Of a stretch of 39,189 nt of DNA, positions 18,085-18,506 are shown piece by piece. The stretch is taken from the IMG/VR virus record IMGVR_UViG_2703718862_000013; one strand, written 5' to 3'. The notes under the pieces are model-generated. The model did no database searches. It was not told the origin of the DNA and saw nothing but the letters and a program-made list of their open reading frames with translations. The position numbers and the translations under genes are program-made. The first letter of the stretch is position 1. Every line of letters starts with the position of its first letter. This DNA is from a virus. Its lineage: Duplodnaviria; Heunggongvirae; Uroviricota; Caudoviricetes.

Positions 18085-18506
18085 GCGTGGGCCTTTTTCG
18101 CCTGTTTCGCTTTGTTACCGGTCTTTTTCCGGGGAGCATCCTGTCCGGCTTCGGCTTCGGCTTCGGCTTCGGCTTCGGCTTCGGCTTCGGCTTCGGCTTC
18201 GGCTTCGGCTTCGGCTTCGGCTTCGGCTAAATCTGTACCGGCCACTGCATGAACCACACCCGCCACGCTCCCCGCATCATCAGCAGGCGTCTGTAGTATT
18301 CGCACAGTGAGGCATGGCTCCGCCTCCAGTCGGGCAAGCTGCTCCGGGGTGACCTCAACCTGCTGACGTCCACGCGTGAACAGGAACCCCGCACGACGAA
18401 ACGCCGAACGACTGCAACGCACTTCTGCCAGCACCGTGACAGAATTGTCACCACTGACCTGAAGACCTGAATCATCTGTTGCTGCCACAGTGTGATGTTC
18501 ATTCAT
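18081..18506 (-). CDS. Hypothetical head-region protein with (Ala-Glu)n linker and Lys-rich C-terminal tail
   Basis: ORF after major head gene; carries the hexanucleotide repeat. Confidence 0.6.
   Translation of the reverse strand: MNEHHTVAATDDSGLQVSGDNSVTVLAEVRCSRSAFRRAGFLFTRGRQQVEVTPEQLARLEAEPCLTVRILQTPADDAGSVAGVVHAVAGTDLAEAEAEAEAEAEAEAEAEAEAEAEAEAGQDAPRKKTGNKAKQAKKAHA
18146..18234. repeat. Perfect hexanucleotide tandem repeat (CGGCTT)n, about 14-15 units
   Basis: Directly visible; in-frame, encodes AEAEAE... Confidence 0.95.

Follow-up and report, generated by a model that had tools for sequence, protein, structure and literature searches.

A coding hexanucleotide repeat in a Mu-like prophage of Shiga-toxigenic Escherichia coli is the typing locus EHC-5 and differs among strains by whole, in-frame units

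The IMG/VR virus record IMGVR_UViG_2703718862_000013 is a stretch of 39,189 nucleotides (the window, by which we mean the whole of it) that is essentially one complete Mu-like prophage, Sp18-like, of Shiga-toxigenic Escherichia coli. An original prediction, made without database searches, had pointed to a long perfect repeat inside a small gene of this prophage. We followed up that repeat and found that it is a variable-number tandem repeat (VNTR) already in use for strain typing, locus EHC-5 of the Japanese multiple-locus VNTR analysis (MLVA) scheme for enterohaemorrhagic E. coli (EHEC). It lies within a gene of the gp35 / HI1506 family, here called the repeat gene. The gene, its parts and the EHC-5 primer sites are as follows.

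18081–18506, minus strand: the repeat gene, a 141-aa coding sequence (CDS) of the gp35 / HI1506 family (Pfam FluMu_N, 37.2 bits against a gathering cutoff of 25.8; phrog_3622, E 2e-79; RefSeq annotation of matching genomes, in which PGAP calls it 'HI1506-related protein').
18146–18228, minus strand: the perfect hexanucleotide tract, on the coding strand (GCCGAA)13 at 18150–18227, then GCCGG (Tandem Repeats Finder, our own scan and shuffles).
18291–18440, minus strand: FluMu_N-type N-terminal domain, about residues 23–72, three strands and a helix (Pfam; homology to Mu gp35 and to HI1506, PDB 2OUT).
18084–18149, minus strand: basic C-terminal tail AGQDAPRKKTGNKAKQAKKAHA, residues 120–141 (translation; alignment with Mu gp35 and distant homologues; AlphaFold2 (AF2) predicted local distance difference test score (pLDDT) about 40).
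18107–18129, plus strand: EHC-5 reverse primer site CCGCTTTGTTACCGGTCTTTTTC, one mismatch in the window.
18277–18299, minus strand: EHC-5 forward primer site ATACTACAGACGTCTGCTGATGA, one mismatch in the window.

Tandem Repeats Finder reported a perfect period-6 tract of 83 bp at 18146–18228 (13.8 units, 100% matches, score 166), our own scan of the window likewise returned a perfect period-6 tract of 83 bp, and the next-strongest array in the window scored 49. An 18-mer probe of three units matched the window 12 times, compared with 0.01 on average over 100 shuffles. The tract is made up of 13 full units and 5 bases, and (GCCGAA)13 encodes (Ala-Glu)13 at codons 94–119 of the 141-aa open reading frame (ORF) on the minus strand, which is the only credible reading frame across the tract. 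The original prediction was right about the perfect 6-bp repeat and the Ala-Glu dipeptide but carried the tract too far, to 18234 and 14–15 copies, and gave the unit as (CGGCTT)n, whereas the coding unit of this minus-strand gene is GCCGAA. Its ORF of 141 aa at 18081–18506, with an N-terminal domain and a Lys-rich tail (GQDAPRKKTGNKAKQAKKAHA), is as described.

The hexanucleotide tract is EHC-5 and is thus already known. EHC-5 belongs to the Japanese MLVA scheme for EHEC O157, O26 and O111 (Izumiya et al. 2010, Microbiol Immunol 54:569, as cited in PMC10062581). Primer sequences were taken from S5 Table of PMC10062581. Both matched exactly in ECs_4975, the orthologue of the repeat gene in prophage Sp18 of O157:H7 Sakai, where they converge around the 6-bp repeat. 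In the window they predict an amplicon of 193 bp with 13 units (18107–18299). EHC-5 and the window tract are the same locus with no structural difference, the window allele having 13 units and one single-nucleotide polymorphism under each primer. Most O157 clades give no EHC-5 product (scored as 0), and where the locus is present it has 2–10 or more repeats (PMC10062581); absence from many strains together with variability where present fits a marker that sits on a mobile, transposable prophage. The EHC-6 primer had no match in the window, which therefore contains just one MLVA locus. The encoded protein is undiscussed in the reachable EHC-5 typing literature, and a literature search on ECs4975, on Sp18 with VNTR and on HI1506 found nothing. 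The comparison of copy number that the original prediction proposed as a check has in effect been routine for more than a decade through EHC-5 typing.

The locus was present in 228 of 5426 complete E. coli genomes (229 records), and 101 of the 229 records were sampled for unit counts. These had an inferred 1–20 units, and all were in frame, with lengths differing by multiples of 3; a separate 9-bp difference in the tail divided them into two allele classes. Loci that were fetched and read directly had 1, 7, 8, 13, 14, 15, 16 and 20 units. The distribution in the sampled records peaked at 8 and 13 units, and the one-unit allele was found in nine of the 101. One-unit alleles occurred in prophages whose neighbouring head and tail genes, in the stretch fetched, were annotated as intact. 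Long perfect tracts of 13–20 units recurred across several flank lineages. Viral contigs in IMG/VR had 1–16 units and fell into four flank lineages, each with short and long alleles. Interrupted alleles also exist (AEVE, AGAG and AETE), as expected of decaying microsatellites.

Among clones, copy number changed stepwise. The near-clonal cattle strains 130, 114 and 118 had 13, 14 and 15 units, respectively, with no differences in flanks of 10,181 and 10,193 bp (20,374 bp in all, or 20.4 kb). The window, with 13 units, also differed from the closest complete genome, E. coli STEC2018-607, with 7 units, despite being 100% identical to it along 20,239 bp of one flank (99.87% along 11,685 bp of the other). 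The predicted in-frame change in copy number, giving a linker of variable length, was therefore borne out, and the number was not the same across isolates of related prophages.

Two IMG/VR contigs (L019 and L020) and four partial proteins (P0056, P0060, P0067 and P0068) end within the repeat. Long alleles break short-read assemblies, and allele counts from draft genomes are consequently biased toward short tracts. In one E. coli protein variant (P0071) the repeat is read in another frame as (Lys-Pro)n and is followed by the normal tail, which points either to two compensating frameshifts or to an error in sequencing.

The N-terminal domain of the encoded protein belongs to the FluMu_N family (PF17891), with the Pfam match covering residues 36–72. 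HI1506 (PDB 2OUT) was matched at E 5e-5 with the single sequence (phmmer) and at E 7e-12 with a profile, and Mu gp35 was 51% identical over 41 aa (tblastn against Mu). NCBIfam gave no match for the repeat protein, and PHROGs returned only families of unknown function. With an alignment, AF2 modelled residues 22–72 confidently (pLDDT 85–93) as three strands and a helix, and residues 78–141 with pLDDT of about 40; the single-sequence model was poor overall (pLDDT 61), with the repeat drawn as a low-confidence helix (about 60). The region of HI1506 that corresponds to the repeat is reportedly an unstructured linker in its nuclear magnetic resonance (NMR) structure.

A search of 1.8 billion representative proteins gave 21 relatives at E up to 0.001, most of which have the domain, then an acidic or proline-rich spacer, then a conserved C-terminal helical domain. 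Mu gp35 and HI1506 share with the repeat protein a homologous N-terminal domain, an acidic spacer behind it, and a gene position between the major head gene T and the adaptor gene gp36. However, Mu gp35, HI1506 and most distant relatives end in a folded three-helix domain of about 45 residues (consensus IRxAVAxLDxxxPxxFTxxGxPxV), whereas the Sp18 type lacks it and has instead the basic tail, with 7 Lys/Arg among 22 residues. The window protein does not have two domains: it ends 22 residues past the repeat, and no part of it aligned to the C-terminal domain found in Mu gp35, P0082, P0086 and others. In a few unrelated lineages (P0098, P0095 and P0084) a low-complexity acidic stretch and a Lys-rich end have arisen independently. 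Unlike the Sp18 type, Mu has no tandem repeat. The one-unit allele DLAEAGQD aligns where Mu has TLAEAGG, which suggests that the repeat grew from one Ala-Glu of the ancestral spacer. Longer proteins can also end in a tandem pair of FluMu_N domains (P0094, P0097 and P0101), and P0101 has an N-terminal helix-hairpin-helix DNA-binding motif.

The minus-strand genes around the tract are those for the Mu protease/scaffold I, the gpT major head protein, the repeat protein, the gp36 adaptor and gp37. The elements bordering the repeat gene are as follows.

18512–18517, minus strand: Shine-Dalgarno-like GGAGGG, 5 nt before the ATG of the repeat gene, within the 43-nt spacer after the major head gene (sequence).
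18550–19497, minus strand: upstream neighbour, Mu-like major head subunit of the gpT family (Pfam PF10124, E 3e-119).
17668–18084, minus strand: downstream neighbour, Mu gp36-type head-tail adaptor gene (ORF list; Pfam PF07030).

The flanking of the repeat gene by the gpT head gene and the gp36 adaptor gene matches the order in Mu and JBD30. The adaptor ATG and the repeat-gene stop codon overlap (ATGA), and from this overlap and its ribosome-binding site we place the repeat gene in the late head operon. The adaptor gene itself is broken in the window by an in-frame stop at 17797–17799 (Trp96 to stop against Sakai, by comparison of translations), and PGAP annotates an 'internal stop' for the same defect in STEC2018-607. 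Through this stop the adaptor loses its C-terminal arm, the part that enters the portal in Mu. Heads and tails of the window prophage therefore probably cannot be joined, and infective particles are unlikely. The tract in the window would then simply drift as a chromosomal VNTR.

A scan for promoters and terminators around the repeat gene found nothing above shuffle expectation. The 43-nt spacer that separates the head gene from the repeat gene contains a GC-rich stem-loop of 8 bp (18524–18542, minus strand), at the place of the terminator predicted behind gene T in Mu; this stem-loop lacks a T-run and does not differ significantly from shuffles (z = −1.5).

The gp35 family also has a possible counterpart among proteins of known structure. 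The family profile, searched against the whole PDB, matched JBD30 gp39 (8rkc_B) at E 1.4e-4 (hmmsearch); alignment of the family with gp39 in hhalign gave a probability of 92% and E 5.7e-7, and BLASTP of the window domain against gp39 gave E 1e-4. In cryo-electron microscopy (cryo-EM) of JBD30, about half of the particles had gp39 trimers on the outside of the capsid, at the threefold axes (PMC11445458); the fold of gp39 is a Soc-like beta-tadpole. The profile match covers the RAGF...EQLxxLExDPxLxV core, both proteins have a small domain of a three-stranded sheet and a helix, and the gp39 gene stands in the same order, directly after a gpT-family capsid gene and before a gp36-type adaptor. However, the gp39 domain is C-terminal, behind a disordered N-terminus of 52 residues; gp39 has neither a repeat nor a basic tail, and its Pfam score of 22.5 bits lies below the FluMu_N threshold of 25.8. 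We regard the evidence for homology between the window protein and gp39 as moderate, not strong.

In the cryo-EM study of Mu, gp35 was not resolved, no cement proteins were seen, and gp35 was considered possibly connector-related (PMC11915804). If the homology to gp39 reflects function, the domain would lie on the outside of the head with the Ala-Glu stretch and basic tail projecting from it; we give this roughly even odds, against a low-copy neck or DNA-associated protein. A virion-surface role for the repeat protein is plausible on this profile match, so that the predicted virion protein is plausible rather than demonstrated; the prediction of a regulatory protein found no support. Virion proteomics of a roseophage gave no peptides for the ORF between gpT and gp36, which may or may not be a homologue.

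The explanation in which we have good confidence is that the tract is a coding microsatellite, EHC-5, in a gp35-family gene of an Sp18-like Mu-like prophage, and that its length variation is driven by slippage and is probably near-neutral variation of a spacer. Whole 6-bp units would be gained and lost, most likely by replication slippage on the perfect repeat. No stable hairpin was found in the repeat DNA, both strands folding worse than shuffled sequences, so plain slipped-strand mispairing is the likely mechanism. Each step would add or remove one Ala-Glu pair and would never shift the frame. The repeat would sit in a spacer behind the FluMu_N domain, and this spacer would end in the 22-residue basic tail, the C-terminal helical domain being missing. 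Since alleles from 1 to 20 units are seen in several lineages, in prophages that are otherwise intact, length appears to be weakly constrained and its variation probably near neutral. The Sp18 of Sakai, with 8 units, is predicted to be intact and its DNA is efficiently packaged (PMC2669165). Tract length probably matters little, and the tract would be a fast clock, useful in strain typing, rather than a switch. The protein itself may be a capsid-surface accessory whose spacer and tail point outward.

Several points weigh against this explanation. We infer slippage from stepwise differences among assemblies, and near-neutrality is argued from the wide allele range alone. The 101 unit counts come from BLAST match lengths, on the assumption that length change is confined to the repeat or to the 9-bp tail indel; the check at sequence level covers 10 loci from complete E. 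coli genomes, and clonal sampling confounds the allele distribution. Models disagree on the conformation of (AE)13, it being helical in single-sequence AF2 (about 60) and disordered in alignment-based AF2. On the capsid-surface role, three fold searches with models did not recover JBD30 gp39 (8RKC) or T4 Soc, and Mu, whose gp35 has the domain, shows no decoration density (PMC11915804).

The protein might instead be a low-copy neck or DNA-associated factor whose basic tail contacts DNA and whose acidic repeat is a mere spacer, still a neutral VNTR; we regard this as possible but doubtful. Translational coupling to the adaptor gene through the ATGA overlap would suit such a factor, as would the 7 Lys/Arg in the 22-residue tail and the fusion of FluMu_N to a helix-hairpin-helix motif in P0101. 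HI1506 is also said, from its NMR structure, to have positively charged patches on both domains and folds weakly like those that bind RNA, and nucleic acid binding was reportedly proposed. Mu gp35 is labelled 'head-to-tail connector complex protein' in GenBank, and the Mu cryo-EM paper gives it a possible relation to the connector, yet it is not in the resolved Mu connector of gp29, gp36 and gp37 (PMC11915804), and the sole FluMu_N-like protein seen in a virion, JBD30 gp39, is on the capsid exterior at the threefold axes (PMC11445458). Adaptive tuning of a capsid-surface protein, in which the number of Ala-Glu pairs sets the reach of the basic tail or the negative charge of the head and slippage serves as a contingency mechanism diversifying the virion surface, seems to us improbable. 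It draws on the three matches to gp39, on the gene order and gpT-family major capsid protein that Sp18-like phage and JBD30 have in common, on the recurrence of perfect tracts of 13–20 units in several flank lineages, and on the other family members (P0098, P0084 and P0095) that independently have an acidic low-complexity stretch and a Lys-rich tail. However, one-unit alleles are common (9/101) in prophages with neighbours annotated as intact, and therefore no minimum length is required; Mu virions have no decoration density; and the adaptor gene is broken in the window, so the tract varies there in a probably non-infective prophage. The stronger proposal, that a gp35-family protein coats the capsid at up to about 420 copies and that its (Ala-Glu)n stalk makes surface charge and tail reach heritable and rapidly variable, is less probable again. 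If true, what this contingency locus altered would be physical properties of the phage head rather than a receptor-binding protein.

On/off phase variation, with slippage switching the repeat gene or the coupled adaptor gene, is very unlikely. A long perfect simple-sequence repeat within a gene is classic contingency-locus anatomy, and the repeat gene shares bases of its stop codon with the gene that follows. However, the 6-bp unit keeps the frame, length differences among all 101 sampled alleles are multiples of 3, every record shown has the gene annotated as an intact CDS, and the (Lys-Pro)n protein P0071 was the single frameshifted variant found. A contingency locus working by frame shift or by promoter spacing was rejected, the unit being of 6 bp and inside the CDS with all 101 alleles in frame. 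Least probable of all is that the tract is an artefact of sequencing or assembly, or that the real gene there is on the plus strand. Contigs from short reads do frequently stop within the tract, and plus-strand ORFs of 46–75 aa cross the repeat, but hundreds of finished genomes contain the tract between clean flanks, and MLVA typing amplifies it as a matter of routine. A plus-strand gene coding for (Arg-Leu)n, (Gly-Phe)n or (Ala-Ser)n was rejected, as the Pfam domain, the ribosome-binding site and the conserved synteny belong to the minus-strand ORF only.

ClfA/Sdr proteins of Staphylococcus aureus have a Ser-Asp dipeptide repeat stalk, encoded by a DNA tandem repeat, that varies among strains, is used for typing and acts as a spacer in a surface protein. 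The repeat gene resembles them in having a dipeptide repeat that arises from a DNA tandem repeat and whose copy number is variable and used in typing. They differ in being cell-wall proteins with another repeat unit, and a minimum stalk length matters there, whereas one-unit alleles are common here. The practical value of EHC-5 lies in its place among the fast-changing markers for tracing EHEC outbreaks; the tract also breaks short-read assemblies at the repeat gene. What is fresh here is only that a profile-level match ties the gp35/HI1506 family to the cryo-EM-resolved capsid decoration protein of JBD30. If Sp18-type phages display the protein, the natural alleles of 1–20 Ala-Glu would be a ready-made series for testing spacer function in a decoration protein.

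Elsewhere in the window, a segment of 1,435 bp (5237–6671) is 100% identical to STEC2018-607 but inverted, and adjoins a recombinase gene (4614–5174, minus strand); it looks like a Mu-type invertible host-range (G) segment in the opposite orientation. No tRNA was found in the window, yet PGAP annotates a 'tRNA-OTHER' in the closest genome. In that genome (NZ_CP075697, positions 515–2035 of the fetched stretch) the end of the prophage abuts a truncated bcsA (cellulose synthase), which suggests that the Mu-like phage inserted into the cellulose operon. The relative lies in a sorbose operon in Sakai, and in FRIK804 between prpD and prpE (PMC7430833). Two records of Stx-converting phages (LC727881.1 and LC727895.1) have a 'region of the inserted Bacteriophage Mu-like phage' that contains the repeat gene; thus, Sp18-like phages transpose into Stx prophages too.
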